Shown here piece after piece: positions 2,969 to 21,852 of a stretch of 27,712 nt of DNA. The position numbers and the translations under genes were made by a program. The DNA lies in assembly GCA_048885865.1 (NCBI GenBank), contig JBHLLF010000033.1:1-27712 (forward strand), given 5' to 3'. The stretch is from Candidatus Hermodarchaeota archaeon. Its GTDB lineage: Archaea > Asgardarchaeota > Thorarchaeia > Thorarchaeales > Thorarchaeaceae. The stretch's first letter is position 1. Each line of letters begins with the position of its first letter. Below the pieces are notes generated by a model. It saw only the letters and a program-made list of their open reading frames with translations. It made no database searches and was not told where the DNA came from.

Positions 2969-3241
2969 CTAACCCCTCTCAAACACAATACCCGTACCGC
3001 CAATAGGATATTGGAAGCTAATTGCTCCCTCATCGCAAACTTGATAACACGCGGCACATTCCAGACATTTCGATTGATAATCATCAGCAATGTATGCTGA
3101 TTTCCCTTTCTTCTTCCATAGATTCATGACACAAATGATTAGGCAGCGACCACAGAGGGTACATTTCTCTTTGTCAATACTGATGAAATCACCTGTGCCA
3201 GGCACTCTCTTCACGAGGTCTTCAACTCTAATCTTCTTCAT
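2969..3241 (-). CDS. 2x[4Fe-4S] ferredoxin, FixX-like
   Basis: CTLCGRCLIIC and CLECAACYQVC motifs. The C-terminal YPIGGTGIVFERG resembles the FixX tail (YPxGGxGV..R.G). ATGA overlap with the upstream flavoprotein. Confidence 0.88.
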   Translation of the reverse strand: MKKIRVEDLVKRVPGTGDFISIDKEKCTLCGRCLIICVMNLWKKKGKSAYIADDYQSKCLECAACYQVCDEGAISFQYPIGGTGIVFERG

Positions 3242-4647
3242 TTGTCCCCCTCCTCATCATATGCAAATGCTTGTGCTATTGCGGTTTCAAGCTCAGGCAT
3301 TGACTCTATGAGCTTCGCAGGGTCTGTCAGAAGATCCATTTTATCGCCAAGTATTGCGGACAGCAGAGGCAGAACCTCCTTCAGAATGAAGGGAGCAGCA
3401 ATCGGAAGATAGTGCTTGATTCTTCTGGCAACTTCCCGTACTCGTTTCGCATGCGGCTGCGACCAATCAATGATTCCTCCAAGTATCTCCATTATCAATG
3501 GTACAAACCAGCTCATGGTCTTCCTTGGACTGAATGGAAGAGCCTTCCAAATGCTGGCAAGCTCAGGACCCGTTTCAAATTCCTCCCCCACACTGGTGGC
3601 CTTCCACTTGGTATCGAACCGAGATAGGAACTCCTTTGATGCATCACCCTCTGCTATCGCCTCAGCTGCTGTTTCTATAGCTGCGCGAGCAGTGATCATA
3701 GCAGGATAGATTCCTTCTGCTTCGAGCGGACATGGGAAGCCGCCAGCATCGCCAATCAATATCACATTGTCAGTGTGTGTATTCTCTGGATAGCCCTGCC
3801 ATGGAAGCAAGTGGGCTTGAAACTCGCGAGGCTTTGCATCGAGAATTCTCATCAAGCGCTGGAAGTATTTCAGGCTAACCACCTGATCCAGATAATGGAG
3901 TGGGTTCTTGTCCCACCATCTCATCCAGTTGCCAAAACCAATATGGAACCCATCGTTGAAGAAGACTTGATACGCTGCAGGAAATGTCGCTGACCACCAC
4001 ACGGCAAGCGCTTCATCTCCCATGATATCATCTATCTTGCCAGGATCTACAGAAAAATCGTACTGGGTTGTCAAAGTGACATTTTCCTGCCTCCATCGTG
4101 ATCTCAGACCACTCTCCCGTGCAACAATTGAAAAAGCTCCATCAGCCCCTATCACAAGCCCCCTATACTTCTCGCCTTTTTCGTCAATTATTCCGATGAC
4201 CTTTCCATTCTCCTTAATGAGCCCGGTGATGAGAGTGGACGTCTTGAGTTCAGCTCCAGCTTGTGTGGCAAATTCAGCGAGCCAAGGGTCAAACTCACTG
4301 CGATACACGTTCATTGTGATGAAACTCTTTGCAGGTTCATATGAGACAGACTCGGTAGGCCGGGTCATGACATAGCCTGCTACAATATTGTCAGAGTTAA
4401 CGAAATAATTGCGAGCAGCCGCGCCTGGTCGCATAGAGGGACAGGCCTCGGGGGTCAATTCTTTCATGATATCAAAGTCAAGCCACATCCGAGGTCCCAA
4501 GCCACAGCCAGATGAGTTCTTTTCCCCTGGTCGCCTTCCTCTTTCGAAGAATATGGTCTTGAGGCCCTTCTCAGCGGCTTCTTTCGCCGCTATCGATCCT
4601 CCAGGCCCTGCTCCAACAATGACCACGTCGTAGTCGTGTACTGCCAC
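3238..4647 (-). CDS. FAD-dependent oxidoreductase, FixC / geranylgeranyl reductase family
   Basis: YDVVIVGAGPGG Rossmann motif, GEKNSSG, RSEFDPWLA, VIGADG and GDAGGFPCPLEAEGIYPAM. I moved the start from the track's 4686 to the in-frame GTG at 4647, which follows a GGGTGA RBS and avoids overlap with padR. Confidence 0.87.
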   Translation of the reverse strand: MAVHDYDVVIVGAGPGGSIAAKEAAEKGLKTIFFERGRRPGEKNSSGCGLGPRMWLDFDIMKELTPEACPSMRPGAAARNYFVNSDNIVAGYVMTRPTESVSYEPAKSFITMNVYRSEFDPWLAEFATQAGAELKTSTLITGLIKENGKVIGIIDEKGEKYRGLVIGADGAFSIVARESGLRSRWRQENVTLTTQYDFSVDPGKIDDIMGDEALAVWWSATFPAAYQVFFNDGFHIGFGNWMRWWDKNPLHYLDQVVSLKYFQRLMRILDAKPREFQAHLLPWQGYPENTHTDNVILIGDAGGFPCPLEAEGIYPAMITARAAIETAAEAIAEGDASKEFLSRFDTKWKATSVGEEFETGPELASIWKALPFSPRKTMSWFVPLIMEILGGIIDWSQPHAKRVREVARRIKHYLPIAAPFILKEVLPLLSAILGDKMDLLTDPAKLIESMPELETAIAQAFAYDEEGDK

Positions 4648-4651
4648 AATC

Positions 4652-5167
4652 TCACCCTCTTCTCTTATCTCGACTCTCACCCTCAATCGATTGCAGTTCC
4701 TTTCTAATCACCTTCAGCTTGTCTAAGAGAACTCTTTTTCTTAGTTCGAGGAGTCCCCTCTGAACCTCGAGATCGGGAATGATTCTAATCGCCTCAATGA
4801 TTGTTTTCTCAGGAATAATGTCGTCAATCCCCAATTCCTGCAAGTTAACCAATAAATCCATCATGAACTCAGCGGGAAGCTTCTTCGCCGCCACAGTCAT
4901 GAACTGATAATTGAATAGCACATACTCTTTTACAAAATCCCTTGTATCTCGAACATAATCCAGACCCTCATTGGTAAGTCCGTAGTATGTCGTTTCTCCT
5001 ATCGTCTCTTCTTCGATGAATCCCTTTTTCACGAGTGTCTTGAGCGCTGGATAGAGTGTTCCGGTCTTCGGAACCCAAATGCCTTCAAAGGTATCACGGA
5101 GATTCGTCAGAATTTCGTATCCGTACTTTGGTCCTTCAAGGAGTTGAATGAAAATTAAGAGCTGCAT
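4652..5167 (-). CDS. PadR-family transcriptional regulator
   Basis: LLEGPKYGYEIL...GTLYPALKTLVKKGFI...YYGLTNEG is the PadR winged-helix signature, followed by a C-terminal helical dimerisation region. Confidence 0.93.
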   Translation of the reverse strand: MQLLIFIQLLEGPKYGYEILTNLRDTFEGIWVPKTGTLYPALKTLVKKGFIEEETIGETTYYGLTNEGLDYVRDTRDFVKEYVLFNYQFMTVAAKKLPAEFMMDLLVNLQELGIDDIIPEKTIIEAIRIIPDLEVQRGLLELRKRVLLDKLKVIRKELQSIEGESRDKRRG

Positions 5168-5295: not shown

Positions 5296-6492
5296 TCATT
5301 GCCTGTCCTTTGATTTGGGATTCCCTCTCACGAATTCCATCAGCTTGTTCTTGACATAATAGAAAAAAGGCATTTGCACTTTAGAATCACCCGGAGGGAT
5401 TTCTTGTTCAAGCCTGCGCGCAGGCAACATTTCTTCCATCTCCAATTCATCAGCCCTAACGCTTGGTGCATTAGGAACAATTACTAAGATGGCAATTGCT
5501 CCGACAACTAGAACAGAGGGTATTGGAATAGCAAATAACTCTCCAGTGTCAGGATTCAATGCAGCCAGCAAGTAATACAAGAGAGGCGCCAGAATGCTCA
5601 GAATCCCAAGCTGAACAACTCGCCTGCGATGAATCATCCCACGAAGATATCGCAGAACAAAGAACGCAAACACTATCTGAAATGCACTTACTACGAGGAA
5701 ATTTAGAAAATCAAATACCGAGAGTATGTCAAAAGAAATCTCCATCCAGTCATTCACATTTCCGGGAGCTGGAGTGTCTCTGATTGTCTGAGAAATGACG
5801 TACAACGGTGCATCAATGCGTTGAGTTATGGTGTCAGAATCCCAGATTTGAACAATTGAAGCGACAGGGAGTAGACAAACCATAAGGCCCCAGAGGCAAC
5901 CTGAAACTGAGTATTTGCTTGGCCAGGGGATTTGTCTTCCGGAGGTTTCTTTTTCCCTAAAACCACGCTCTGCTCCCCATAAGGAGGCTTCCTGAGAAAA
6001 GATTGGTATGATGATGAAGACGACGATGGTTAGTGTTCCGAAATTCATCAATGCCGAAGAAGGATATGACTGAAAAATCATATAGAGTTCAGGAGGCAGA
6101 AACTGGTTAACAAGATATGAAGTGAGAATGATTATAGCGAATATAGTCGCCAGGCTAAGATCTAATATTGGCGCATCAGCTCGTCGGTTTCCTATTCTTC
6201 GAATAAGATACATGGATGAGATAACTATGACAATGGCGGCGAGTAGAGTGATTGGTTCAATTAGTCTAGTCGTCGATGACCACATGCCCAATTCCCCAGC
6301 TGTCTGCCATCTTTGAAGATATATGAATACTGAGGTCATTCTATATAATGAGGAAGGCGGCTCTGTAACATATTCCTCAAGCAAGTAAATCTCTGAGGGA
6401 ATTACGAGGAGGATGCAGAATGCAAAAGCGAGCTTCAGCAAAGATAGAAATCTCATTGGACCTCGCACTAGTGGCCTCCTTCGAGTATCCAT
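5296..6492 (-). CDS. Uncharacterised multi-pass membrane protein (paralog of 20746..21852)
   Basis: 398-aa ORF with about 8 hydrophobic segments and a GGAGAGG RBS-like site before the ATG. It shares motifs with the ORF at 20746. Confidence 0.8.
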   Translation of the reverse strand: MDTRRRPLVRGPMRFLSLLKLAFAFCILLVIPSEIYLLEEYVTEPPSSLYRMTSVFIYLQRWQTAGELGMWSSTTRLIEPITLLAAIVIVISSMYLIRRIGNRRADAPILDLSLATIFAIIILTSYLVNQFLPPELYMIFQSYPSSALMNFGTLTIVVFIIIPIFSQEASLWGAERGFREKETSGRQIPWPSKYSVSGCLWGLMVCLLPVASIVQIWDSDTITQRIDAPLYVISQTIRDTPAPGNVNDWMEISFDILSVFDFLNFLVVSAFQIVFAFFVLRYLRGMIHRRRVVQLGILSILAPLLYYLLAALNPDTGELFAIPIPSVLVVGAIAILVIVPNAPSVRADELEMEEMLPARRLEQEIPPGDSKVQMPFFYYVKNKLMEFVRGNPKSKDRQ

Positions 6493-6626
6493 AATTTGCC
6501 TCTCCTGATAACAGGAAACGAAAGACAGTCATATAACCGCGATTCGTGAATAAAGCAATCGGTCTTCGAAGCTACGCCATTCAATTCGAAGCCTTTAACT
6601 TGTAAGCTGTAATCCCCTAAATGTAG

Positions 6627-7292
6627 GTGATGCGTGTGGATGTTGACAAATCCCTTAACTGCAATGAACTGAGGGAATGCGACGTTGTCGACTCAACTGG
6701 CAAGAAGATCGGCAAGATAGGCGATATGACCTTCACCTTTGACGGCAATCTCAATCTTGCACAATTCGTGCTGCGTGGGTCTGCCTGGGAGGAGTTCCTG
6801 GAGTCGATTGGTGCTAGGCCAGACAAGGATCCATTGTTTGATGCGTCTCTCATCCGCAGAATTGGTGACAAGGTCCAATTAGCTACTAACGTGAATAGCT
6901 TGAAGACTACTCTTGATGAGGGAGCTATCACCGAGGCGGAGATTCGTTGGTCTGAGCTGAAAGACAAGTATATTGTAGACAAAGATGAAGTAGGTGTAGG
7001 GAAAGCTGTTGACATTGACTTCGACATAGATGGAACAGCTTCCTTGACGGTGGGCGGAGGCATCATAGAAGAAACCTTGGAGTCCATTGGTCTCAAGGCC
7101 GATGTTGACATAATAGTTCCAGCTGAAACTATCGAGTCGATGGGCGACAAGATCAAGCTGAAGGTCTCCAAGAATGAGCTTAAGCTAACCATGGACAAAG
7201 CGCTTGAGAATATGGAGGTCAAGAAGTCCAGAGATGATATTGCAACTCAAAGCGCTGTCGCGAAAGTCCGTCTGTTTCGAAAGCTAAGGTAG
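6627..7292 (+). CDS. Tandem PRC-barrel domain protein
   Basis: Two internal repeats: ELRECDVVDSTGKKIGKIGDMTF...IRRIGDKVQL and ELKDKYIVDKDEVGVGKAVDIDF...IESMGDKIKL. Both match the PRC-barrel pattern (L.g..V.d..G..iG.v.D ... I..igD.i.v). The true start may be ATG 6630 or GTG 6636, after AGGTGA. Confidence 0.85.
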   Translation: MMRVDVDKSLNCNELRECDVVDSTGKKIGKIGDMTFTFDGNLNLAQFVLRGSAWEEFLESIGARPDKDPLFDASLIRRIGDKVQLATNVNSLKTTLDEGAITEAEIRWSELKDKYIVDKDEVGVGKAVDIDFDIDGTASLTVGGGIIEETLESIGLKADVDIIVPAETIESMGDKIKLKVSKNELKLTMDKALENMEVKKSRDDIATQSAVAKVRLFRKLR

Positions 7293-7470
7293 TTGAAGAA
7301 AGAATTCAAGATTGCATATCCTTCGAAGTGCACCATTCAGATTAGTCTATAATAGGCTAGCGAATCCTCCGGAGGAAGAGGTAGATTTCATTTGAGCCAA
7401 CGACTTTCTAGCCTGCGAAATCACTATCAGAGATATGTGGATCTTTCTGAATGAGCGAGAGAGTTGCCTC

Positions 7471-10400
7471 TCAAGGAATTTCTCCATGCACTACAAACTT
7501 GTCTTCCCATTCCATCTGATGCTTCAAATTCCCTTTCATAACTTCGAGATTTCTGAGTGATTCTTCCAGACTCTCCTCGAATATTCCTGGGAATTCCTGA
7601 ACCAGCTCGCGTTTAAGACTAACTGCTCTCTCCAATAGAGAGTATGCCATTTTCTTGCTGGACATTATGTTGTAATAATTGGCATAGTTATGAAGCACTA
7701 TCGCAAGGTGAATCCTGTATATCTCGGGTGTTCTTTGAGCAAGATTTTCAATAATAGATAGAGATTTCTCAAATTGAGTCTCAGCAGATTTCATTTCTCC
7801 AGTATCAGCTAGAACTATAGCATGATTGCATAGCAAATTTGAATGAAGGCCGCTGTAGACCTCAGGTACCTCCTCCGACCGTTGCAAAGAGATTTCTAGG
7901 GCTTCTTCTATGGCCTCTTTTGCTTCAGATTGCCTGTCTTTAAGCCGCAACAGAACACTATAGTTGTTTAGAATTCCAGCCAAAAAAGCGTGCCAACGCG
8001 GCGGCATGAATTCTGATTGCCGATATATCTGAATAGCTTCCAATAAAGCCTCTTCAGCTTTGTCGAACCTCCCGTCTTTTATGTACATGACCGCGGACGA
8101 ATTGAGCTGGGCTCCCAAATACAGCCATCCACGTGTGCCTCCCTCCATGCGTTTCCGACACATCCCAATCGACTTTTCAACTGCTGAAATTGCCTCAGGG
8201 ATATTTCCACGAGCGAAATGAACATGACTTAAAATGTAATGGGCCCCTTCTATCCATGTTCTATAGACTTCCGGAAATTCTTCGAAATTCTTTTCTCCCA
8301 ACTCTAGATATTCTGTGAGGGTTTCTTCAGCTTCACTTAGTTTATGGAGCCGCAAGCTAAACATGCTTCGATTGAAGAATTGGCTACCTAATCTGCTAAG
8401 AAAGACATCTGGCTCTTTTTCAGAAAGACCTCTGCGTATCTCAAATGCCTCACGAGAAAGCTGGTCAGCTTCTTTAACGTCCCCCTTCTGATCAAGGAAT
8501 ATTGCCAAGTTATTTAGCATCGCGGAAAGAGCTGACTTTGCACGGGAGTTATCTGGGTTGGAGTCAACTACATCCCTTTGAAGCCTAATCGCTTCCCGAA
8601 AGACTCGTTCTGATTCAGTCCACTTATTACTGCGCCCAAGCATTACGCTCATAGCATTTAGGGCGGTGGGTATCAATTCCTTGCAGTCAAATCTCTCATA
8701 GATTGCAATTGCTTCTTGTGCATATGGAATCGATTCCAACGGATGCATGTCACCGAGCCACCAAGCGTATGCCAGTAGTATCTTGGCTAGGGCTTTGAGC
8801 TGTTTGGGAGATTCCTGCTCTGCAACTGTTCTCTGGATTTCTACAGCCCTTGAGATTACTTCCAGTGCTTCATCGTATCCAGTATACCTTAGCACTTCAT
8901 GTAAATCAGATAGGTATTCAGCTATGCTGTCAAGGTGTTTTGCAGAATCATCTTTGCTCAGCTCTTCAAGAATTCGTATAGCTTCCCTAGCCGCATCCTC
9001 AGCTTCGGCAAGTCGACTGAGTTTACCCAAGACCTTTGATCTAAGTCCCAAAATCTCCGCCACACCTTTGATGGAGTGGAACCTCAGATTTTCAAGAATC
9101 TTCTGAGCATTGATTACTGCATCTTTCATCACAAGTTCATTGATGACATCTTTTGCAGTCTGGATTGCCTCCTCTTCAGAGAATATTGCTCGAACAGAGA
9201 ATGCATGTCCCATTAGACTCGAATCAGCATCATCTTCAGCCTTCTTCTCAAGCAGGAGAACGACTTCATCCGCCAGACTCTTCCCGCGTGTTCCTAACTC
9301 ATTAATAATGAGATCCCTAGTAAGATCATGAAGCACATATAGACCATCATCACGGGCACGTACGAAACTCAATTGCAGAAGTCTTTGCCATAAGTCAGAT
9401 GTAAGAGACGGGGCTACGATGCCCAATATTTCACGGTTAAAACTCTCCATCAAACCTGCTCTATTGATGATATCCTGAAGCCCTGATGTCATGTTGAAGA
9501 GTCTCCGCCAAGTCTTCAAGCGAACTTCATCAAGCGTGTCAGCACGCAGGCCTTCTACATCATCAAGAGAAATGGTTCCTGCATCCTTCATGTCACAAAT
9601 AGCATCGATAACAAATGGGTTTCCACCACTGACACTCACAATCCTATTCTGTATCGACTCATCCAGCACTCCTCTCATCTCAAGTAATTCCCGAGTGCTT
9701 TCTTCATCCAACTCGGTGAGTTCTTGCACCTCGAGATTATCCGTTATATCTGCCGATTCTGGAACTGACCTTCTGCTGCCTAAGACACCCACACTGTTGC
9801 TGAGTGAGGACAGAAACACGCACCACAGTTCAGTTTCGCTGATTTTCTTTCCTGCATATCGCCAAAGAGGAGTATCGCTGTCCACATATTCAAAGTGATC
9901 AAAAAGGAAGAGAATTGGCTGATTTGGATTACTGCGATTATTCAGGTCCTCCAGCAGAGCATCAAGGAAGAGGATTTCTGCATGACGCGGCTCTTTCCAT
10001 AGAATCTCCAGCAGTTTCGCAAGATAATCCTTTCCCAGTCTATCCTGCAGCCACTGTCCCAATGAGCCAAATCTGTTCTTTATCTTGGGAGCTACCTCAG
10101 CACCGATGGAACGAATCGCATTTCCAATGCTTGCCAGAGACCCAATGAACGGGATGGCCATAACGATCTCCCTAGCCCATTCCCGCCCCTTTTCCTTGAC
10201 CGGTTCGACACCTTCTACAAATCGCTGTCGAATTTGCCAGAGCACATCGAATCTCTGAAGACTTGCGCCCAGCAAAACAGCTCCTTTTGCTAGGACATTG
10301 AGACGCTCGTAGAAGCCTGTGTGCTGGTCACAGTCAAGACGAATCGTGGAATCTATCGTACGGTTCCAGTAATCAAGTAGAGAGCTCTTGCCAATACCTC

Positions 10401-10524
10401 CTATTCCTCTCAAAACTAGAACAACACTTTGTTCCTTGCAGCGCTTCAGAGCATTGTCCATCCAGCTGATGTAGACTTCCCTATCAACAAAGAGTTGGTC
10501 CGATAGGTCGAAGCGCTCGTACAA
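7471..10524 (-). CDS. STAND-class P-loop NTPase with winged-helix and C-terminal TPR array (copy A)
   Basis: FVDRE; Walker A GIGGIGKS; Walker B ILFLFDHFE; sensor-1-like GSR; GxP motif SGGNPF; MHD-type motif LHD; many LNNLA/LNNYS-type TPR units. TTG start. Confidence 0.88.
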   Translation of the reverse strand: MYERFDLSDQLFVDREVYISWMDNALKRCKEQSVVLVLRGIGGIGKSSLLDYWNRTIDSTIRLDCDQHTGFYERLNVLAKGAVLLGASLQRFDVLWQIRQRFVEGVEPVKEKGREWAREIVMAIPFIGSLASIGNAIRSIGAEVAPKIKNRFGSLGQWLQDRLGKDYLAKLLEILWKEPRHAEILFLDALLEDLNNRSNPNQPILFLFDHFEYVDSDTPLWRYAGKKISETELWCVFLSSLSNSVGVLGSRRSVPESADITDNLEVQELTELDEESTRELLEMRGVLDESIQNRIVSVSGGNPFVIDAICDMKDAGTISLDDVEGLRADTLDEVRLKTWRRLFNMTSGLQDIINRAGLMESFNREILGIVAPSLTSDLWQRLLQLSFVRARDDGLYVLHDLTRDLIINELGTRGKSLADEVVLLLEKKAEDDADSSLMGHAFSVRAIFSEEEAIQTAKDVINELVMKDAVINAQKILENLRFHSIKGVAEILGLRSKVLGKLSRLAEAEDAAREAIRILEELSKDDSAKHLDSIAEYLSDLHEVLRYTGYDEALEVISRAVEIQRTVAEQESPKQLKALAKILLAYAWWLGDMHPLESIPYAQEAIAIYERFDCKELIPTALNAMSVMLGRSNKWTESERVFREAIRLQRDVVDSNPDNSRAKSALSAMLNNLAIFLDQKGDVKEADQLSREAFEIRRGLSEKEPDVFLSRLGSQFFNRSMFSLRLHKLSEAEETLTEYLELGEKNFEEFPEVYRTWIEGAHYILSHVHFARGNIPEAISAVEKSIGMCRKRMEGGTRGWLYLGAQLNSSAVMYIKDGRFDKAEEALLEAIQIYRQSEFMPPRWHAFLAGILNNYSVLLRLKDRQSEAKEAIEEALEISLQRSEEVPEVYSGLHSNLLCNHAIVLADTGEMKSAETQFEKSLSIIENLAQRTPEIYRIHLAIVLHNYANYYNIMSSKKMAYSLLERAVSLKRELVQEFPGIFEESLEESLRNLEVMKGNLKHQMEWEDKFVVHGEIP

Positions 10525-10567
10525 TCTATTGACTCCATAACAGTTTAGGGAATCGATTGGGATTGGC

Positions 10568-10594
10568 CTCTCATAAGATAGTCGGTATTTCCAT
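10568..10594 (-). promoter_or_regulatory. Conserved promoter-like element upstream of STAND-TPR copy A
   Basis: Minus strand ATGGAAATACCGACTATCTTATGAGAG. The CTTATG ends 48 nt upstream of the TTG start. The same motif and spacing occur before copies B and C. Confidence 0.7.
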
Positions 10595-13500
10595 TAGCTA
10601 ATGGAGGTGTCATAGAATACACCAACTTCAGTGTCTTTTTCTTCAATCCAGATTTCTTGCTCTGCGAAATCCACCATCTGAAGCGCTTCAAGTCTTCTTT
10701 TAATCGAATCAGCCTTCTTTCTTTCCGCTCGTTGCATGTAATGGAGCAATAGGTTTGATAGAACCATTTTGAAATATCGCTCATAAACAGAAGGGACTCT
10801 TGCTGCCAGATTTTCAAGGATATCAAGCGCGTCTAGATAATATTCTTCAGCTTTCGAATGTTCATCATTCAACTTGTGTATATTGCCAAGGTTGTTCAAG
10901 ATGAACCCTAGGCGACCATTGTGAAATTCGGGTGATTTTTCTGCCAGCTTTGCACGTATTTTTGTACCCTTTAGGAATACAAAGCGAGCCTCATCCACCC
11001 TATTTGCGGTAGATAGATGAACTCCAAGATTATTGAGAGTCGTCGCTACGCTACCTAGAAACATTTCCGGATTCTTTTTTGCTAATGCCTCTCTTACCTC
11101 AAGTGCTTCATGCAGAGCTTTCTCTGCCTCGTCATTCTTATTCATGGTTCTATGCAAGACGCCAAGATTATTCAATATCTGACCCAAGAGTTGCAAATGG
11201 AATACATTCTCTGGGAATTTTCGAGCTAAAACTCGGGCTATTTCAAGTGCTTCATGGAAGAATTTCTGAGCTCTGTCTGCTTCATCTGCTTCTTGGAGAA
11301 GGATTGAATAGTTGTTTAGTATCCACGCAATATACTTCTCAAAGAGGTCAGGCCAATCTTGTAGGAGTCGTTCATAGTTTCCCATTGCTTCTTCATAGCA
11401 TTCTCGAGCTTCGGAAAACTGGCGCTTTTCATAATACAAAACCGCCAAATCGTTGAGAATCTGTGAGAGCCTATGAAGATAAACCTCAGGAGTATCTTGG
11501 GCTGCTTCTCTTAAGTGATCTAGGATTTCCCTATAGTGAATTTCTGCATCAGCATAGTTGCCAGCAAATTTCATCACAAGTGCGAAATGTCTGGGGATAT
11601 ATGCGGCTCGGAATCGCCATTGGAAGGAAGCCGTCTGATACATATCAAATAAATCTCTGTACGCTCTATTAGCCTCCTGAAATCTGGATGTAAGTCTGTA
11701 GATATGTCCTAGGTATTGAAGTCTGTTCATTCTATTGATATACTCAGTATCATTCTTTGGAATTTCCATTGCTGCTTTCTCAGCTTCAATTGTGTTTCCT
11801 GCTAGAAGCAATGTATAGCAAAGATAGCTCAATGTAAATGCCCGTTCACGCGATATTGCAGATGATTCTCTACCAAACTTCTCTAGGTCCAGGGCCCTTT
11901 GCAAGAGGTCTGCTGCTTTGTTCAATCTATGCATATCTATTAGAAAGAGGCTGTACCACCAATATACACTGAATACCCAAGGATGTTTCCTCATATCTTT
12001 GAGGTCAATCTCCTCGGTAAGTTCTAGAGCTCTTTCAAACATTGCATCGGCTTCAATTGGTTTCTTTATTCTACGCAGCAAGTTGCCATATGAATTTAGA
12101 ACCTGTGCTAGATAGAACTTGTTGCTTTTAGGATCAGATTCAGCTAATTCCTCGAGAACAGCAATAGCATCTTTGAACAGATGTTCTGCTTCAGCAACTC
12201 TGTCTAGTGCCGTGAGGTGGTGTGCTTTAATCCAGGAGATTAGGGTTTGCTCTCTCAGCTCACCAAAATTAACTGAGTCAAGTAATTCAACGGCTGAGCG
12301 AAATTGCCCCCTCCAGCTTAAGTTGTTCGCAACTTCAGAAATCTTATGTATGGCAAATTCTGGAGAGTATAGACCTTGCACGGAAATGGAAAGCCCGAGG
12401 AGTGTAGGGTCATCTTGTGCTTCTGAGGTTTTCTCAAGGAGTTCAGCAACCTCATCCGCTACTACGCGGAACCGATCCCCGAGTTCTGCAACCACCAGTT
12501 CTCTTGCTAGGTCATGCATAACGTACGTTCCATCGCCTCGATTCTTTGCGAAACTAAGACCTACCATTCTTGTCCATTGATCAATGTTCATGGTTGGAGC
12601 AATAGTATTCATCACGTTTCGGTCGAAGTAGGGCAACAATCCAGCCCGATTCACTAGCTCCTGAAGGTCCTGAACCTCATTGAAGAGCCTTCTCCATGTC
12701 TTCAGCCGAACTTCCTCAAGAGTGTCTGAACGTAGACTCTCAACTGATGAAAGTGAAAGCGAATTTGATTCCGCCATATCGCATAGCGTACCAATAACGA
12801 AGGGATTACCACCGCTAACACTTACAATTCGCTCTTGTAGTTTTGAATCTGTTATTTTTCTCAAATTCAGAAGCTCGATGCAGCTCGCCATATCAAGTTC
12901 AGTTAGCTCTGAATCCTCTATCTTATGCTCGGGAGATTCAACTACTCCCTTCCTACTTGCCATAACTCCAACACAATTGGACAGAGATGACAAGAAGACA
13001 CACCATAGCTCTGCTTCAGTTATCTGCTTTCCAGCGTAACGCCAATGAGTTGCTTCGGTATCAACATATTCGAAGTGATCCATTAGAAAGAGCAGGGGTG
13101 ATTCCAGATTCTTTCTGCTATTCAAATCTTCAAGAAGTGCATCCAAATAGAGGAACTCAGCTTGATGTGGATCCTTCCAGAGTATTTCCAGAAGTTGTTC
13201 CACATGATTCTTGCCGAGGACTTCTTGTAGCCACTTGCCCAAACTGCTGTATTTCCCTTTCAGCTTGGGTGTCACTTGCGCACCTACTGCTTTTATTGCA
13301 CTGCCTATAGTTGCTAGTGATCCGATGAATGGAACTAGTGTGACTATTTCCTTTGCCCACTCACGACCTTCTTCCCTGACTGGCTCAACGCCTTCAACGA
13401 ATCGTTGACGAATCTGCCAGAGAACATCAAATCTCGGGAGTTGTACACCGAGACGCACTGCTCCTTTTGCTAGGATGTTCAATCGTGCATAGAACTCGGA

Positions 13501-13704
13501 ATATTGCTGGCAGTCCAGACGAATAGTGGAGGCAATAGTACTCGTCCAGTAATCTAGCAAGGAGCTTTTGCCAATTCCTCCGATACCCCTTAGGTGCAAT
13601 ACAACTGACTTGTCTTCGCAGCGCTTGAGAGCCTCATCCATCCATTCGAGATACTCTTCCCTGTCTACGAAGACTTGTTCAGATGGTTCGAAGCGCTTGT
13701 ACAA
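10594..13704 (-). CDS. STAND-class P-loop NTPase with winged-helix and C-terminal TPR array (copy B)
   Basis: GIGGIGKS, LLFLMDHFE, ASR, SGGNPF, canonical MHD (YVMHDLAR), and repeated ILNNLG/TLNNLG TPR units. TTG start. Confidence 0.88.
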   Translation of the reverse strand: MYKRFEPSEQVFVDREEYLEWMDEALKRCEDKSVVLHLRGIGGIGKSSLLDYWTSTIASTIRLDCQQYSEFYARLNILAKGAVRLGVQLPRFDVLWQIRQRFVEGVEPVREEGREWAKEIVTLVPFIGSLATIGSAIKAVGAQVTPKLKGKYSSLGKWLQEVLGKNHVEQLLEILWKDPHQAEFLYLDALLEDLNSRKNLESPLLFLMDHFEYVDTEATHWRYAGKQITEAELWCVFLSSLSNCVGVMASRKGVVESPEHKIEDSELTELDMASCIELLNLRKITDSKLQERIVSVSGGNPFVIGTLCDMAESNSLSLSSVESLRSDTLEEVRLKTWRRLFNEVQDLQELVNRAGLLPYFDRNVMNTIAPTMNIDQWTRMVGLSFAKNRGDGTYVMHDLARELVVAELGDRFRVVADEVAELLEKTSEAQDDPTLLGLSISVQGLYSPEFAIHKISEVANNLSWRGQFRSAVELLDSVNFGELREQTLISWIKAHHLTALDRVAEAEHLFKDAIAVLEELAESDPKSNKFYLAQVLNSYGNLLRRIKKPIEADAMFERALELTEEIDLKDMRKHPWVFSVYWWYSLFLIDMHRLNKAADLLQRALDLEKFGRESSAISRERAFTLSYLCYTLLLAGNTIEAEKAAMEIPKNDTEYINRMNRLQYLGHIYRLTSRFQEANRAYRDLFDMYQTASFQWRFRAAYIPRHFALVMKFAGNYADAEIHYREILDHLREAAQDTPEVYLHRLSQILNDLAVLYYEKRQFSEARECYEEAMGNYERLLQDWPDLFEKYIAWILNNYSILLQEADEADRAQKFFHEALEIARVLARKFPENVFHLQLLGQILNNLGVLHRTMNKNDEAEKALHEALEVREALAKKNPEMFLGSVATTLNNLGVHLSTANRVDEARFVFLKGTKIRAKLAEKSPEFHNGRLGFILNNLGNIHKLNDEHSKAEEYYLDALDILENLAARVPSVYERYFKMVLSNLLLHYMQRAERKKADSIKRRLEALQMVDFAEQEIWIEEKDTEVGVFYDTSIS

Positions 13705-13747
13705 TCTCCTAGCCCCTTATCGCGCGATAATAGGCAGTAGCAGAAGT

Positions 13748-13773
13748 CTCTCATAAGCAAGTCGGTTTTCCAT
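13748..13773 (-). promoter_or_regulatory. Conserved promoter-like element upstream of STAND-TPR copy B
   Basis: Minus strand ATGGAAAACCGACTTGCTTATGAGAG. The CTTATG ends 48 nt upstream of the TTG start. Confidence 0.7.
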
Positions 13774-13796
13774 CCAAAAGAAACTACTCTAGCACC

Positions 13797-16700
13797 CTAA
13801 TAGATCCAGAAGTATGTAATTGACGCCCTCATTTCCTCTTCTGACCAAATCCCTTCCTGAATGGCTTTTCTGATTCTCAACCCTTTGACCGCACTTTCCT
13901 CTTGAGCGGCAGTGGCTTTCTTGAATGCTTCATCTGCATCTTCTTGTTGTCCATCTCTCTTCATGATTAAGCCGATATTATTGAAACAAGAAGATATACC
14001 CGGCAGAAATAACTCTTCTGATACCTTTTTCAATTCCCGTCTTATCCTAAGACATTCAGTTAGATGTTCCAGTGCTTCAGAATTCTCGCCAGTTTCAGAT
14101 AGCGCCACACCCAAGTTGTTGAGTATCGTGGCATAATGGTGATAGAAGAGGTCTCGTGACTTTTCGACTAAGGGCTCCAATCTCTCTTTCGCTTCTCGAT
14201 AGGATTTCAACGCCTCTTGACTTCTCCCTTCATTCCTGAGAAGCACTCCAAGATTATTGAGAACAACTGCCTGCAGGTCTCTTACGAAAACAGCTTCTGG
14301 AAAATTGTGGACAAGCTGGGTCGAAATATCAAGGGCTTCAGTATACGCCTTTTCTGCTTCTTGAGCCTTGCCAGCGTGATTCAGATTTATTGCAGAGCTG
14401 TTCAGGACATCACAAAGGATGTCTTGGTATCGATCTGGAAATAGCTCTGCTGCTTGTCTGTAGAACTCTAGAGATTCAGAATAGGCATTATTGGCTTCTG
14501 CGAATCTGCCATCCTTGCTGAGAAAGTCTGCAAGATTTCTTAGACTAAGTGCAATCAGGCTCTTCCCTCTCTCTGGTTCCTCTTCAAATACCTCCTCGGC
14601 GATGTCCTGCGCTTCTGTTAGCAGTTCCTCTGCATCTGCGAATTTTCCTACCTGCAGTAGCAGAATTCCTAAGTTCACTAGAGGATCTACCAAATACGAC
14701 TTCAACTGCTTATCCTTTTCTACAAGTGTCCTACCAATTGTGACGAAATCGTTGAATACGGCTTCAGCTTCCGACGCTCTATTCAATAATTTTAGGGTAG
14801 TCCCGATAATTGACTTGCTAAAGAAATCAGTTAGGTCGATTCCCTCAATCTCATTAGCTTTCATAGCCAGTTCTTCAGCCTCGTCTGCCTTTCCCAATTG
14901 GAGCAACACATTGGCAAGACCTGCAAGCAATACTTGATGCATTCGAGAATTATGTTGCCCTTCAAATGAATGGAGGTCTTGGGGAGTGGTCATAACTCTC
15001 TCTTGAATTTCCAATGACTCTCGATATTCCACTTCTGCTTCTCCGTATCTCTTCGTAAGATGCAAGAGATCGCCGAGCGTGGAACGCATCAACGCTATAG
15101 AACCCAAATTATACCCGGGAGTCCTTTCATCAAGGCTTGTCGCTCTTCTGATTCCCTCTCTCATCGCTTCCTCGGCTTCATCAAGTCTATCCAAGCCTAT
15201 ATAGAGTGAAGCAAGACCCCCATAAGCTTCAGCTACCCAATAGCGAACATCATCTGAAACTCCGCTTGGCACATGGTCAGCCAGGCTCATCACTTCTCTA
15301 TAATCTCGTTCTGCTTCGACAACTCTTTTCAATGCAGTGAAAATCCATCCCCTGGCTATTATTCTGCAAGCATGGCCTCCCAGTGTATCGATTCTATTGT
15401 ATTCATGGAACGTAAGGGCATCAGAAAGAGCGCCTCTGTACATTAAGTCAGTGGATGTTTGAGTCAGTTTTGTGAGAGCCTCAATCTCAGATGCCAGTGA
15501 ACGAACAGCAACCGACAATCCAAGAAGAGCATAATCAGATTCTTTCTTAAATGCACTTTCGAGGCGGTTGGCTGCTTCTGTCGCCAATTCTGCGATTCTA
15601 TCTTCCATTTCCTTGACAATCAGGTCTTTGGCCAGATTGTGAAGCGCGAATGTGCTATCGCCGCGGTCTCTAATGAAGCTAAGATGAATCAACCTAGTCC
15701 ATTGGTCCGAGTCCATTTCTGGCGCAATGATATTCAACACTCGTCTATCGAAGAACGGGAGAATACCAGCTCGATTCACCAATCCTTGGAGTTCTTGTAC
15801 TTGGCTGAAGAGTCTTCTCCAAGTCTTTAGACGAACTTCTTCGAGTGTGTCTGCCCGTAGGTTCTCAATTGAGTCTAGGGAGAGCATGCCAGAATCAGCG
15901 ACATCGCAAATAGTACCAATGACAAACGGATTCCCTCCGCTCACGCTGACTATTCGTTCTTGAAGAGCGGAATCAGTGATTCCTCTCAATTCCAAGAGTT
16001 CAATGCAGCTTTCTCGTTCCAGCTCTGTGAGTTCAGATTCTTCAATGGCAATCTTTGCCTTATCCGCAACGGGTCTTCTACTGGCCATCACTCCTACGCT
16101 GTTGGACAATGATGACAAGAACACACGCCAGAGTTCAGACTCAGCAATCTCCTTCCCACCATACCTCCAATGAGTCTTTTCTGCGTTGACCCTTTCGAAA
16201 TGATCAAAGAGAAAGAGGATTGGCATTCCAGGGTTCGTTCGTTCGTTTATGTCCTCAAGCAACGCATCCAGGTAGAGGAATTCCGCATGATGAGGATCCT
16301 TCCAAAGTATCTCTAGAAGTCGCTCAACATGATAATCTCCTAATGTGTCTTGGAGCCATTTTCCGACTGCTCCATACCTTTCTTTCAGCTTTGGAGCCAC
16401 TTTTGCGCTCACAGAACGGATTGCTATCCCGATGCTGACAAGAGAGCCTATGAATGGAATCGCAGAAATGACATCCTCTGCCCACTCCCGCCCAGATTCC
16501 TTGACTGGTTCGACTCCCTGTACAAACCGCTGTCTGATTTGCCAAAGAACATCAAATCTTTGTAGAGGAATTCCGAGCAAGACTGCTCCTTTGGCCAAGA
16601 CATTCAATCGATCATAGAACTCGGTATACTGCTGACAGTCAAGTACAATGGTGGTTTCCACGGTCTTCTTCCAGTGTTCGAGAAGTGAACTTTTCCCAAT

Positions 16701-16829
16701 CCCTCCAATACCACGAAGGTGCAGGACGACACTCTTCTCTTTGCAGCGTCTGAGCGCCTCAGTCATCCAATCGATATACTCCTCTCTATCTACGAAGATT
16801 TTCTCGGAGGGTTGGAAGTGCTTGTACAC
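13797..16829 (-). CDS. STAND-class P-loop NTPase with winged-helix and C-terminal TPR array (copy C)
   Basis: GIGGIGKS, ILFLFDHFE, ASR, SGGNPF, variant LHN at the MHD position, and TPR units. I moved the start from 16919 to GTG 16829: (M)YKHFQPSEKIFVDRE aligns with the N-termini of copies A and B, and the 48-nt motif spacing is restored. Confidence 0.88.
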   Translation of the reverse strand: MYKHFQPSEKIFVDREEYIDWMTEALRRCKEKSVVLHLRGIGGIGKSSLLEHWKKTVETTIVLDCQQYTEFYDRLNVLAKGAVLLGIPLQRFDVLWQIRQRFVQGVEPVKESGREWAEDVISAIPFIGSLVSIGIAIRSVSAKVAPKLKERYGAVGKWLQDTLGDYHVERLLEILWKDPHHAEFLYLDALLEDINERTNPGMPILFLFDHFERVNAEKTHWRYGGKEIAESELWRVFLSSLSNSVGVMASRRPVADKAKIAIEESELTELERESCIELLELRGITDSALQERIVSVSGGNPFVIGTICDVADSGMLSLDSIENLRADTLEEVRLKTWRRLFSQVQELQGLVNRAGILPFFDRRVLNIIAPEMDSDQWTRLIHLSFIRDRGDSTFALHNLAKDLIVKEMEDRIAELATEAANRLESAFKKESDYALLGLSVAVRSLASEIEALTKLTQTSTDLMYRGALSDALTFHEYNRIDTLGGHACRIIARGWIFTALKRVVEAERDYREVMSLADHVPSGVSDDVRYWVAEAYGGLASLYIGLDRLDEAEEAMREGIRRATSLDERTPGYNLGSIALMRSTLGDLLHLTKRYGEAEVEYRESLEIQERVMTTPQDLHSFEGQHNSRMHQVLLAGLANVLLQLGKADEAEELAMKANEIEGIDLTDFFSKSIIGTTLKLLNRASEAEAVFNDFVTIGRTLVEKDKQLKSYLVDPLVNLGILLLQVGKFADAEELLTEAQDIAEEVFEEEPERGKSLIALSLRNLADFLSKDGRFAEANNAYSESLEFYRQAAELFPDRYQDILCDVLNSSAINLNHAGKAQEAEKAYTEALDISTQLVHNFPEAVFVRDLQAVVLNNLGVLLRNEGRSQEALKSYREAKERLEPLVEKSRDLFYHHYATILNNLGVALSETGENSEALEHLTECLRIRRELKKVSEELFLPGISSCFNNIGLIMKRDGQQEDADEAFKKATAAQEESAVKGLRIRKAIQEGIWSEEEMRASITYFWIY

Positions 16830-16874
16830 TCTATGATGCCCCGGTTGAGCGATGGGGTACGTTCGACCGAGTAC

Positions 16875-16896
16875 CACATAAGCTAGTCGGTGTTTC
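16875..16896 (-). promoter_or_regulatory. Conserved promoter-like element upstream of STAND-TPR copy C
   Basis: Minus strand GAAACACCGACTAGCTTATGTG. The CTTATG ends 48 nt upstream of GTG 16829. Confidence 0.68.
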
Positions 16897-18261: not shown

Positions 18262-19194
18262 GTGACCATCTTGGACTCGATTGACCGAAGTATCCTCTGG
18301 CAGCTAGATGCCAATTGCAGAACAACATATGAAAATCTCTCTCGGAAGTTAGGGATAACCGCGAACGCTGTTAGGAAACGAATAACCAACCTGATTGAAA
18401 GTGGAGTCATAATCCGGTTCATGGTGTTGCCCAGCAATGCATTGATGGACCTCGAGTTTGTTTCTGGAGTCCTCTACACAAACGGTAGTGAAGACCGTCA
18501 GGAAACCGTAGGTATCTTGGGGTCAAACCCTGTTATTCACCATGTCAGCCCGTTGGTCACTGCTCGGGGTGGTGCATACCATTTCTTTGGTCAATACTCT
18601 GGAGCTGAGATGCTTGCCCAGCTTGGTTCCTTCCTTCGTGGACTTCCTCAGACTGAAGAAGTGAAGTTCAATACAGTTCTCTTTCCTCGAGGAGAGAGAG
18701 CGAATTTGACAAAGCGACAGATGCGTGTCCTACGTGTCCTTTTGGATGATCCACGCATGCAAATTAGTGAGATTGCTAGGAAATCTCAACTTCCTGTTCG
18801 AGCGGCACGAAGAGCATTGCAGGAACTTGAAGAGGAAGGCGGAGTCAGGTTCACAGTCAGATGGGATGTTAACACCAGAGGGAATAATTCCTTCTGGGCG
18901 TGTATCGAATGGGATGACAGAACCTCTGAACATTCCCAGATAATTGACTGGCTTCACAAAGAATTTCCAAACGAATATTGGACCTTTTTCGTTGCCGCTG
19001 CGGAACCGCTGGTCTATGCAAGGTTCGTTGTCGACGACCTACTCGATGTGGACCGAATCACAAATCAAATCAAAGATGCTCCATCTGTCAAATCCCTCGA
19101 AACTCTAGTTTGCTATTCCACGTATGATTTCCCATGGTATGGCGAGGCAGTACTAAGGGAGATGCTAGCACAGGAGGGAATTCAGGACTCCTAG
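18262..19194 (+). CDS. Lrp/AsnC-family regulator with duplicated HTH-RAM architecture
   Basis: N-terminal LDSIDRSILWQLDANCRTTYENLSRKLGITANAVRKRITNL and a second HTH, LTKRQMRVLRVLLDDPRMQISEIARK. It is about twice the length of a normal Lrp. Confidence 0.9.
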   Translation: MTILDSIDRSILWQLDANCRTTYENLSRKLGITANAVRKRITNLIESGVIIRFMVLPSNALMDLEFVSGVLYTNGSEDRQETVGILGSNPVIHHVSPLVTARGGAYHFFGQYSGAEMLAQLGSFLRGLPQTEEVKFNTVLFPRGERANLTKRQMRVLRVLLDDPRMQISEIARKSQLPVRAARRALQELEEEGGVRFTVRWDVNTRGNNSFWACIEWDDRTSEHSQIIDWLHKEFPNEYWTFFVAAAEPLVYARFVVDDLLDVDRITNQIKDAPSVKSLETLVCYSTYDFPWYGEAVLREMLAQEGIQDS

Positions 19195-20745: not shown

Positions 20746-21852
20746 CTAAGTTCTATCTACAATCTCAGCAATCCTTCTCTTTGCTCCTATAAATCGGCTC
20801 TTTATCATATAGGTGAAAGGGACTTTTATGCTCCCTTCTGGATGAGAAATGACTGGCGCTTCATCGCCCCTTTTATCAGAGAATTCAGCTTGGCGATTGA
20901 CTGTGGGATCTGATGACAAAACAACAATAGTCCCCATTATTAGCAAGACTGGAATAGGAAGCACGATTGTGGGAAATTGAGCTACCAACACTATTCCTGG
21001 AAATGCAGCAATATAGGGGAGAAGAATGCTTGAAAGCCCAATGAGAAGGACTCTGCGTCTTGATATCAAGCCTTTCAGGTATCTTAGTATGGAGAACCCA
21101 AATAGAAGATGTAGCAAGAGGTATGTGAGATAATATAGAGAATCCATTGGTGATAATGAGGAAATGTAAATGTATATTTGATTAACCGGTTGCCATGGAA
21201 CTTCGGGGAATAACATCTCATACCGGGTCATGTAGGATAGGGAAAGAAATGCGTAAGCTGCATTATCCCCCGAAAAAACGGCAGTCAGTCCTACTGGCAC
21301 TAACGTAGTAACAAAACCAATTGCACAAGCTAGGATTCTATGCTTTGCTTGAAAGTCCCGATGACTGGCTTCTCTAATTATGAGAGGAAGGATAATCAGA
21401 ATGGCCATCACTAGCGTTCCGAATCGAAGTAGTTTCCAATCAGGGCCTGTCTGTACCAACCATAATAACTCAGCTGGTGGGAAATGTTCCACGAAGTAGA
21501 TTGTCACTACTGCGGTGCCAAAGTACGCGGCTAACCCAGCGTCTCGGATTGGTTCAGTTGGATTTAGATTCCTGATTTTGCGATTCAACAGGATAGCAGG
21601 TATACAAATTATACAGGCAATGGCCAAGGTCACAGGATTGCTAATTGTCAATGGAGGAATGCTGCTGTCCCTCGAATCATTATAATCCATTAGCACGGAG
21701 CCAACCGAGATATTATAGTAATTATTATAGTAATTACCAAAGTAGGTTATCTCGATGGGAATTATGAAGAGAATGAATATTGCCACTGCCATCTTGACCC
21801 AGAAGGACAGATCTATTGACCTTCCCCCTAGGATGATAGTAAATCTCCTCAC
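20746..21852 (-). CDS. Uncharacterised multi-pass membrane protein (paralog of 5296..6492)
   Basis: About 8 hydrophobic segments and motifs shared with the 5296 ORF. The start is uncertain. I chose in-frame GTG 21852 over 21987 because it matches the paralog's N-terminal length and removes the overlap with the divergent ORF. Confidence 0.75.
   Translation of the reverse strand: MRRFTIILGGRSIDLSFWVKMAVAIFILFIIPIEITYFGNYYNNYYNISVGSVLMDYNDSRDSSIPPLTISNPVTLAIACIICIPAILLNRKIRNLNPTEPIRDAGLAAYFGTAVVTIYFVEHFPPAELLWLVQTGPDWKLLRFGTLVMAILIILPLIIREASHRDFQAKHRILACAIGFVTTLVPVGLTAVFSGDNAAYAFLSLSYMTRYEMLFPEVPWQPVNQIYIYISSLSPMDSLYYLTYLLLHLLFGFSILRYLKGLISRRRVLLIGLSSILLPYIAAFPGIVLVAQFPTIVLPIPVLLIMGTIVVLSSDPTVNRQAEFSDKRGDEAPVISHPEGSIKVPFTYMIKSRFIGAKRRIAEIVDRT

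Follow-up and report, generated by a model that had tools for sequence, protein, structure and literature searches.

The 27,712-nt window analysed here, which is the entire 27.7 kb contig JBHLLF010000033.1 of a metagenome-assembled Asgard archaeal genome (3.58 Mb assembly, 87% complete), carries three co-oriented, head-to-tail genes, numbered 1 to 3, that each join a signal transduction ATPase with numerous domains (STAND) NTPase to a long tetratricopeptide repeat (TPR) sensor. We put a probability of roughly 0.6 on the reading that the three are paralogs, each transcribed on its own, from a STAND family restricted to Asgard archaea and centred on Thorarchaeia, and that each encodes a ligand-gated oligomerising switch with a tail latch and an output delivered in trans. 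STAND switches underlie eukaryotic apoptosis and innate immunity as well as many bacterial antiviral systems, and Asgard archaea are the closest prokaryotic relatives of eukaryotes; to our knowledge, STAND forms in Asgard archaea have barely been described. A survey of nucleotide-binding leucine-rich repeat (NLR) systems in Asgard archaea covers the NACHT type (PMC11291487).

The three open reading frames (1017, 1036 and 1040 codons) are separated by gaps of 69 and 92 nt, and the assembly contains no further copies of the family. Pairwise amino acid identity is 62–67% over residues 1–440 and 24–28% beyond, and in a sliding window it falls sharply past about residue 440, from 0.66–0.74 to 0.14–0.38. 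An earlier analysis made from the letters of the window (the original prediction) had described three head-to-tail paralogs with colinear NTPase halves and barely alignable TPR halves; both descriptions hold, and all five identical blocks that it quoted occur in all three proteins. The profile of the N-terminal domain (N-domain) matches gene 1 with E 8e-197. Because synonymous sites between the genes are saturated (pS 0.75–0.85), we regard the three as old paralogs whose N-terminal halves are kept alike by selection, not as recent copies; for the same reason dN/dS among the three was dropped and ortholog pairs were used in its place. The statement that each protein begins about 11 residues before the FVDRE motif is correct for genes 1 and 2, and for gene 3 only with a start at the GTG at 16829, as the open frame runs on for another 30 codons to an ATG at 16919. 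The GTG is most likely the true start, because homology to the family begins there and the conserved upstream motif described below lies within the 30-codon extension.

By motif and by predicted fold, the N-terminal half is a true STAND module, the criteria for the superfamily being reportedly those defined by Leipe et al. in 2004. Conservation was read from two N-domain alignments, set A2 with 57 sequences (some only 22% identical) and set A4 with 65. The FVDRE pre-P-loop motif, which aligns with the VFVTRK segment of Apaf-1, contains an R15 that is invariant in A2, as are G40, G45 and K46 of Walker A and P301 of the GGNPF sequence that forms the GxP motif in helical domain 1 (HD1); the sensor-1 arginine R251 is near-invariant in the same set. 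Walker B has the variant form hhhhD-H-F-E, with D209 nearly invariant in A2 and invariant in A4, and E212 invariant in A4. In the MHD-like motif, 64 of 65 sequences retain H397 and 56 of 65 retain D398, and gene 3 reads LHN, not LHD, a change retained in four orthologs. The gene 3 clade, which includes orthologs at 8510–11542 of locus L024 and 5855–8998 of locus L042, keeps LHN, and its tail is set apart by a hydrophobic-aromatic run at the end; the clade may represent a functionally specialised paralog.

An AlphaFold2 model of the nucleotide-binding oligomerisation domain (NOD) of gene 2, built from the N-domain alignment, reached pLDDT 89 and pTM 0.84 (87 and 0.70 for the full-length model) and contains a nucleotide-binding domain (NBD) followed by HD1 and a winged-helix domain (WHD). 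Its top Foldseek matches are all STAND proteins. VIA-align Z scores were 24.1 for MalT (8bob_C), 23.2 for resting NRC2 (8rfh), 22.9 for PH0952 of Pyrococcus horikoshii (6mfv), 22.7 for the NB-ARC domain of NRC1 and 22.0 for Apaf-1 (3sfz), with the strong superpositions spanning residues 7–445 (302–340 residues aligned, rmsd 3.2–3.7) and the model resembling closed, resting or ADP-bound STAND forms. Because Z is 22–24 for these proteins versus 12–14.5 for ORC/Cdc6, archaeal MNS-type ATPases and the NACHT proteins NLRP3/NOD2, the module would sit on the Apaf-1/PH0952/MalT side of the superfamily, a placement to which the motifs also point. In a profile search of PDB sequences the first match was Apaf-1 (E 1e-4), at the pre-P-loop helix and P-loop; a second Apaf-1 alignment, at the GxP region, was non-significant. 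None of the three proteins matched Pfam NB-ARC (PF00931), which one distant member matched in part, at 21.7 bits where the cut-off is 23.5; matches to AAA_16 were only sub-threshold (25.9–29.4 bits against 32.6), and NCBIfam and PADLOC returned nothing for the NTPase half and only weak generic TPR matches. The STAND/NB-ARC-like NTPase plus TPR architecture proposed from the letters is thus supported by motifs, fold and TPR domain matches, with the HD1/WHD arrangement present in the model.

The module also contains a helical expansion between Walker A and Walker B. The Walker A lysine and Walker B aspartate are about 85 residues apart in Apaf-1; here the distance is 163 residues in every core member and 161–190 in distant members, and only 300–340 of the 445 residues of the NOD model align with solved STANDs. 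The extra ~75 residues are modelled as part of seven helices over residues 71–195. This subdomain is conserved to the same degree as the catalytic motifs, W158 and D193 being invariant and P125 and G164 nearly so among the 57 sequences. It includes a hairpin around PFIGSL that is the most hydrophobic 19-residue window of the NOD (maximum Kyte–Doolittle value 1.6–2.0); the hairpin is Pro/Gly-broken and of borderline transmembrane hydrophobicity, has a nearly invariant Pro at its centre, and stays hydrophobic in distant members. In PH0952 and Apaf-1 the ISM and H2 helices lie at the position of the expansion, and it is against this NBD region that both proteins dock their sensor (PMC6468293).

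The same expansion occurs outside Asgard archaea. Bacterial and methanogen TPR-protein clusters in the ESM Atlas superpose over 389–412 of the 445 NOD residues, expansion included (TM 0.73–0.78), and the clusters nearest by sequence features carry NPHP3_N, AAA_16 or WHD_MalT. Bacterial relatives that we fetched, with Ignavibacteriaceae, Halarcobacter and Cylindrospermum as example taxa, have a Walker spacing of ~165–205 residues, a D-x-[YF]-E Walker B, a start near the NTPase and TPR_12/TPR_10 sensors; at 24–29% identity they lie at the edge of sequence detection, and their NTPase matched no Pfam family. A contig-level scan of genomes gave matches at 9 or more loci. We take the expansion as the defining trait of a broader NTPase-TPR group, so far uncatalogued, in which the Thorarchaeal family is one branch. 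The question whether the family is undescribed, which the original prediction could not settle from the letters, has an answer in part: no Pfam, NCBIfam or PADLOC model covers it, and in the literature we found no paper joining Thorarchaeota or Asgard archaea with NB-ARC-type STANDs and none on the family, but it belongs to a bacterial and archaeal group of the same layout. What is new is an Asgard family without prior description; the STAND-TPR switch type is already known.

The C-terminal part of each protein matches Pfam TPR_12 and TPR_10 (E 1e-23 to 1e-36), and in the full-length model of gene 2 it forms a continuous solenoid over residues 446–1007. Its fold matches are peptide-binding TPRs, namely APPBP2, LGN, NprR/Rap, domain III of MalT (Z 25.3) and KLC1, and the C-terminal repeats superpose on KLC1-TPR:peptide chimeras over ~250 residues (rmsd 3.1, 20% identity). 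According to the conservation profile, variability is greatest in the N-terminal and middle repeats, and the last four to five repeats carry a conserved Asn-Asn ladder in which N846, N892 and N938 reach 0.98–1.00. At the C terminus of core members stands an acidic-tryptophan motif, typically ...LPESEEWSEEEE..., with clade-specific variants (EWED in gene 1, EIWIEE in gene 2 and IWSEEE in gene 3). A strict W-acidic pattern falls within the last 35 residues of 68 of the 119 core members, compared to 0.3% of other 35-residue windows, a ~200-fold C-terminal enrichment.

The model of gene 2 places residues 1008–1030 of this tail in coil, yet with pLDDT 78–88. We predicted the complex of the TPR part (446–1000) and the tail (1001–1036) as separate chains, alongside three controls. 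The docking scored an ipSAE of 0.71 versus 0.01 for the best control, with runs agreeing in at least 77% of contacts and a partner pLDDT of at least 56; in calibration, 58 of 80 solved complexes and 2 of 110 mismatched pairs attained that mark. In this model the tail (1013–1031) runs along the concave groove, contacting one helix face every ~45 residues, and W1019–E1022 lie against the Asn pairs 845/846, 891/892 and 937/938 (0.72–1.00 conserved). The prediction supports, short of proof, binding of the W-acidic tail to the Asn-lined TPR groove of its own protein. The TPRs of kinesin light chain (KLC) bind W- and Y-acidic motifs in their groove, and the LFP-acidic stretch of KLC itself is a cis autoinhibitor (PMC6214655); NBD-sensor autoinhibition has been demonstrated for TPR-type STANDs (PMC6468293). 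Partial matches also raised the possibility of genes with TPRs and tail lacking a NOD. The one inspected (genome G004, locus L027, 5754–7892) abuts a run of N, and we make no claim for such genes.

Each of the three genes has the motif ACCGACTNNCTTATG 48 nt ahead of its start codon (Table 1), and a conserved GCGTG...GGGGTCAGGAG block extends to each start codon. The same layout, a B recognition element (BRE)/TATA-like motif plus GGAG, is found ahead of 32 family members in many genomes. We infer a BRE/TATA-like promoter with a short Shine-Dalgarno-bearing leader. Because each gene has its own promoter-like motif, the three would be transcribed separately, possibly under one regulator.

The named relatives of the proteins belong to Thor-, Sif-, Hod- and Baldrarchaeota, with the closest in Thorarchaeota/Promethearchaeota, in agreement with the Asgard origin suspected in the original prediction. 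The family is present in 49 of 400 Asgard genomes and is patchy by genus. At the level of taxonomic families it was found in 38 of 85 genomes of the window's own, 5 of 19 of a second and 0 of 135 of the largest other; at the level of genera, in 0 of 5 and 0 of 4 genomes in some and in 13–15 of 16, by query and cut-off, in the window's own. Within the genus, copy number ranges from 0 to 10 per genome, and N-terminal fragments are many, some with stop codons. Such remnants (G030:C76:6077–6409, G015:C111:3529–3852, G366:C66:24645–24917 and others) are short and N-terminal and stand beside intact copies, several with in-frame stops; we interpret them as signs of gene decay within arrays.

Gene content at the array locus also differs between genomes. 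An N-domain tree identified one-to-one orthologs of genes 1–3 in genome G008, where an amidase gene and another open reading frame are interspersed and the gene 1 ortholog is 92% identical in the N-domain. Flanking genes for a major facilitator superfamily (MFS) transporter, an amidase, a PRC-barrel protein and a multi-transmembrane protein mark the locus in G010, G002, G020 and G008. At this locus, two genes of another subclade come after the gene 2 ortholog in G010, the two copies in G002 both stem from other subclades, and G020 pairs a gene 2-like copy with another member. The two halves of the proteins each have a history of their own: between gene 2 and its G008 ortholog, identity is 84% in the N-terminal module and 29% in the C-terminal one, gene 3 and its G008 ortholog differ with dS 1.10 in the former and 0.40 in the latter, and protein P0130 combines an N module in common with the third gene of G010 with a C module that matches the gene 2 clade. 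Among 128 full-length members, some pairs have 80–95% N-terminal identity with only 15–27% C-terminal identity, and a few pairs show the reverse. The dN/dS ratio (omega) of ortholog pairs was 0.06–0.13 for the N-terminal and 0.15–0.36 for the C-terminal module, that is, two to three times higher in the sensor. As read from these comparisons, the family is under birth-and-death evolution with exchange of NTPase and sensor modules and is not a fixed orthologous trio. The diversified sensors and non-fixed gene content that had been proposed are upheld by the differing paralog sets at one locus and the separate N- and C-terminal histories; the array does not consist of fixed one-to-one orthologs, and the proteins fall in no characterised non-signalling ATPase family.

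Family relatives are rare, searches of 1.84 billion representative proteins having retrieved 144, all of which begin at the NTPase, aligning from their own residue 1–55. None is longer than 1380 residues, and their only other Pfam domains are TPRs; the proteins end ~30 residues past the last TPR. No N- or C-terminal defence effector domain was found in genes 1–3, and no N-terminal effector in the 144 relatives. An N-terminal amyloid-type signalling motif was ruled out, as only ~11 residues lie ahead of the NTPase. The earlier description of the proteins as effector-less is accurate for the N terminus, here and in all 144 relatives, but the conserved W-acidic tail and the NTPase expansion could carry output.

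The genomic context consists of a PRC-barrel protein, an MFS transporter, double helix-turn-helix (HTH) regulators, an amidase and two paralogous multi-transmembrane proteins in the window, and, by Pfam, of metabolic and transport genes among 103 neighbours in 19 related loci. PADLOC returned only generic ABC-ATPase or HTH matches for 10 window neighbours and these 103, and its Avs and NLR models had no match in the NTPase region of the proteins, only a weak generic TPR model responding. Distant members P0186 and P0262 stand alone among unrelated genes, and a scan with a single P-loop pattern found no relatives on viral contigs. A census of STANDs uses a defence neighbourhood or a defence effector as its criteria for defence (PMC13581612), and by both the family would not be classed as defence-associated. 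The Avs-like immune role put forward in the original prediction therefore found no support: PADLOC gave no match, none of the ~110 neighbours is a defence gene, and the single-pattern scan placed no copy on a viral contig.

Table 1. Features of the three-gene array, with positions in the window.
Feature	Position	Strand	Description or basis
Gene 1	7471..10524	-	1017 aa, TTG start; STAND NTPase + TPR + W-acidic tail
Gene 1 NOD-equivalent stretch	9190-10524	-	Equivalent to gene 2 NOD
Gene 1 tail	~7474-7548	-	Equivalent to gene 2 tail
Gene 1 upstream motif ACCGACTNNCTTATG	10572..10586	-	48 nt ahead of start codon
Gene 2	10594..13704	-	1036 aa, TTG start; STAND NTPase + TPR + W-acidic tail; copy chosen for modelling
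Gene 2 NOD (aa 1-445), NBD-HD1-WHD + start of arm	12370..13704	-	Structural alignment, invariant motifs
Gene 2 helical expansion, strand 2 to Walker B strand (aa ~66-203)	13096..13509	-	Spacing, model helices, conservation
Gene 2 hydrophobic hairpin around PFIGSL (aa 119-141)			Inside the helical expansion
Gene 2 TPR solenoid (aa 446-1007)	10684..12369	-	Pfam TPR_12/TPR_10, fold matches
Gene 2 C-terminal tail (aa 1008-1036)	10597..10683	-	W-acidic core E1017-E1022
Gene 2 upstream motif ACCGACTNNCTTATG	13752..13766	-	
Gene 3	13797..16829	-	1010 aa from GTG at 16829 (most likely start); STAND NTPase + TPR + tail
Gene 3 NOD-equivalent stretch	15495-16829	-	Equivalent to gene 2 NOD
Gene 3 tail	~13800-13874	-	Equivalent to gene 2 tail
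Gene 3 upstream motif ACCGACTNNCTTATG	16877..16891	-	

Elsewhere in the window, the two paralogous multi-pass membrane proteins (398 and 413 residues, at 5296–6492 and 20746–21987 on the minus strand) flank the array and match no Pfam family; members of the same family border the STAND array in G010 and lie near it in G002. The two paralogous regulators of ~305 residues (18262–19194 and 24698–25615, plus strand) have an AsnC-type N-terminal HTH and a MarR/TrmB-like second HTH, and the first of them gives weak matches to the PADLOC Csa3/CasR HTH models. The duplicated regulators and membrane proteins suggest an old segmental duplication around the array. A gene at 23831–24622 (plus strand) encodes a fusion of a GNAT acetyltransferase with an SSB-like OB fold (Pfam Acetyltransf_1 and tRNA_anti-codon/Ssb-like_OB), and a 609-residue open reading frame with no Pfam or PADLOC match (21921–23750, plus strand) overlaps at its start with the end of the divergent membrane-protein gene. 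At 25725–27712 (plus strand), running off the contig end, is a TPR_12/MalT-like TPR protein that lacks an NTPase; in G047, a similar 835-residue protein (cluster c12) is encoded two genes away from a family member. The cluster at 205–4686 (minus strand) is conserved and syntenic with G010 and comprises an FAD_binding_4 oxidase, a ~482-residue flavoprotein and then a PadR regulator, with a CCG-type Fe-S protein read from Cys motifs only.

The mechanism that we favour would involve four parts: the NBD-HD1-WHD module with its enlarged helical subdomain, a short arm, a long kinesin-light-chain-type TPR solenoid and, in the core family, the W-acidic tail. At rest, the NOD would be closed on ADP and the tail, acting in cis as a latch or pseudo-ligand, would occupy the concave, Asn-lined groove that the last TPRs form, with NBD-sensor contacts through the enlarged subdomain adding to the stability of this state. 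A protein or peptide ligand, by binding the variable N-terminal and middle repeats or by competing for the groove, would free the tail and release the NOD, which would then exchange nucleotide and multimerise. Because the proteins have no catalytic effector domain, the output would come from one or more trans partners recruited by the oligomer through the displayed tails, the enlarged NBD subdomain or both. Birth-and-death evolution and module exchange would give each genome its own set of specificities, with ligand specificity residing in the exchangeable N-terminal and middle TPRs.

Such a switch resembles several known systems in part. PH0952 and E. coli MalT have the same NBD-HD1-WHD-arm-TPR order and superpose over nearly the whole NOD, domain III of MalT resembles the Thorarchaeal sensor, and a closed ADP-bound resting state with NBD-sensor autoinhibition is expected likewise in the Thorarchaeal proteins. 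These differ in the ~75 extra NBD residues between Walker A and B, in the W-acidic tail and in their multi-copy variable arrays as opposed to a single regulator gene. The AP-ATPases Apaf-1, CED-4 and plant NB-ARC proteins have the same FV-R-E, P-loop, sensor-1 Arg, GxP and MHD-like His-Asp motifs, with Apaf-1, NRC1 and NRC2 at Z 22–23 to the Thorarchaeal NOD and Apaf-1 its best PDB sequence match, and plant NLRs form tandem clusters with diversified sensors as in this array. However, the Thorarchaeal proteins have no CARD, coiled-coil (CC) or TIR domain, a TPR sensor instead of WD40 or leucine-rich repeats, a D-H-F-E Walker B and a Pfam NB-ARC score below threshold. Avs1–21 and bNACHT proteins likewise combine a STAND with a large, mostly TPR-like C-terminal sensor in single-gene units, with sensor diversity and inter-clade exchange (PMC13581612), but the N terminus of Avs proteins holds an effector (nuclease, protease, SIR2, TIR or another) and their genes sit near defence genes; here we found neither an effector nor a defence neighbourhood. 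KLC (PMC6214655; PDB 6fuz, 6fv0) has the same TPR_12/TPR_10 repeats, an Asn-lined concave groove and a cis acidic-aromatic motif like the one predicted here, but no NTPase, and the motif is N-terminal to its TPRs and C-terminal in the Thorarchaeal proteins; the likeness is one of recognition mode only, and we make no claim of common descent of the latch. The bacterial and archaeal ESM Atlas clusters have the NOD and expansion in common with the family; they have no W-acidic tail and are not known as arrays.

Several points weigh against a latched, ligand-gated switch. Nucleotide binding, oligomerisation, the ligand and the output are all steps that we infer, and with D-H-F-E at Walker B in place of the usual DD/DE, hydrolysis may be atypical. 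The W-acidic tail is absent from distant Asgard members and from bacterial relatives and hence, going by this distribution, cannot be essential to the basic switch. The two chains of the docking run were cut from one polypeptide, and the score may be driven in part by the model's memory of solved TPR-peptide complexes. The predicted groove contacts are no better conserved than other TPR positions (0.49 versus 0.50, p = 0.71); the Asn pairs are the sole exception, and they belong to the general TPR_12 repeat consensus. Gene-wide omega in the sensor is below 1, so that no pervasive positive selection is evident and the sensor appears relaxed. With respect to a partner, all-versus-all clustering of the neighbours in 20 loci gave only locus-specific flanks, and nothing follows the dispersed copies; the only other exact ACCGACTNNCTTATG match in the genome lies inside the coding sequence of an unrelated FAD enzyme and thus reveals no co-regulated partner. 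With no conserved neighbour and no co-regulated gene found, the earlier idea of signalling through a shared partner or hetero-oligomer found no support.

Two other roles would make use of the same architecture, and we consider each of them possible, at odds well short of even. The proteins could be antiviral or anti-mobile-element receptors of the NLR/Avs type, the TPRs of each paralog sensing a different invader protein and defence being triggered by an effector that the paralogs share in trans, or by a hetero-oligomer of the sensor/helper type. Variable copy number, common pseudogene fragments, turnover at the locus, swapped sensor modules and a sensor omega two to three times that of the NOD would all suit such receptors, and the D-to-N change in the MHD-like motif of the gene 3 clade is reminiscent of specialised partners in paired plant NLRs. 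A STAND with a long TPR sensor is moreover the architecture of most Avs families (PMC13581612). Yet the proteins have no effector domain, no PADLOC model matches their NTPase, their neighbours are metabolic and transport genes, the scan with one P-loop pattern placed no relative on a viral contig, both criteria of the census would class the family as non-defence, and sensor omega (0.15–0.36) gives no evident sign of positive selection. The housekeeping neighbours and the purifying selection on both halves would instead suit a regulatory or scaffolding ATPase in Thorarchaeal cell biology with no immune role, an adaptor gated by ATP through which client proteins are assembled or released by TPR-motif contacts in the manner of NPHP3, KLC or MalT, with the paralogs serving different clients. 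Most prokaryotic STAND clades, 391 of 589, show no association with defence, and MalT, AfsR, TEP1 and NPHP3 are non-immune (PMC13581612); the NPHP3_N, AAA_16 or WHD_MalT domains of the ESM Atlas clusters nearest by sequence features and the KLC/NPHP3-type repeats with a cis W-acidic motif point the same way. A scaffold would not be expected to be so patchy inside one family, where some genera have it in none of 5 or none of 4 genomes and the window's own in 13–15 of 16; the range of 0–10 copies with frequent decay and sensor swapping is unusual for core cell-biology factors, and there is no DNA-binding or other output domain. Turnover and sensor swapping push towards conflict, and the missing effector, defence context and signs of positive selection push away from it; we give an immune and a cell-regulatory role about equal weight.

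It is improbable, to our minds, that the NTPase module is itself the effector, with the conserved hydrophobic hairpin of the expansion inserting into or disturbing a membrane on oligomerisation. KAP NTPases have membrane segments within their P-loop domain, and plant resistosomes form membrane funnels. The hairpin is the most hydrophobic NOD window (1.6–2.0), has a near-invariant Pro, is kept in distant members and lies in a subdomain as conserved as the catalytic motifs. However, the segment is only ~20 residues long, Pro/Gly-broken and borderline for a transmembrane span, AlphaFold places it in a soluble helical subdomain (pLDDT 68–83), the three proteins do not match KAP_NTPase (PF07693), and the region is the sensor docking site in PH0952 and Apaf-1 (PMC6468293), which explains its conservation without a membrane.

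A more far-reaching form of the immune idea, which we hold to be a long shot, is that Thorarchaeia keep a diversifying, effector-free, NLR-like immune repertoire with a eukaryote-style short linear motif, the W-acidic tail in a KLC-type TPR groove, as latch, a trans executioner recruited by the oligomer once ligand binding frees the tails and the LHN clade as helper or sensor partner. If this is true, NLR-type sensor/helper logic and W-acidic/TPR motif recognition would both exist in the archaeal relatives of eukaryotes. Should the latch hold on its own, W-acidic/KLC-type motif recognition, so far known from eukaryotic transport, would also occur in archaea. If the proteins are plain regulators, they still add a defined clade, with ~165-residue Walker A–B spacing and a D-x-[FY]-E Walker B, to the uncharacterised part of the STAND tree. 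Under the ligand-gated switch that we favour, an Apaf-1/MalT-like protein without an output domain would nevertheless have been retained, multiplied and recombined within a single Asgard class, each copy with a promoter of its own, which would make the family a case for how an effector-less receptor signals.

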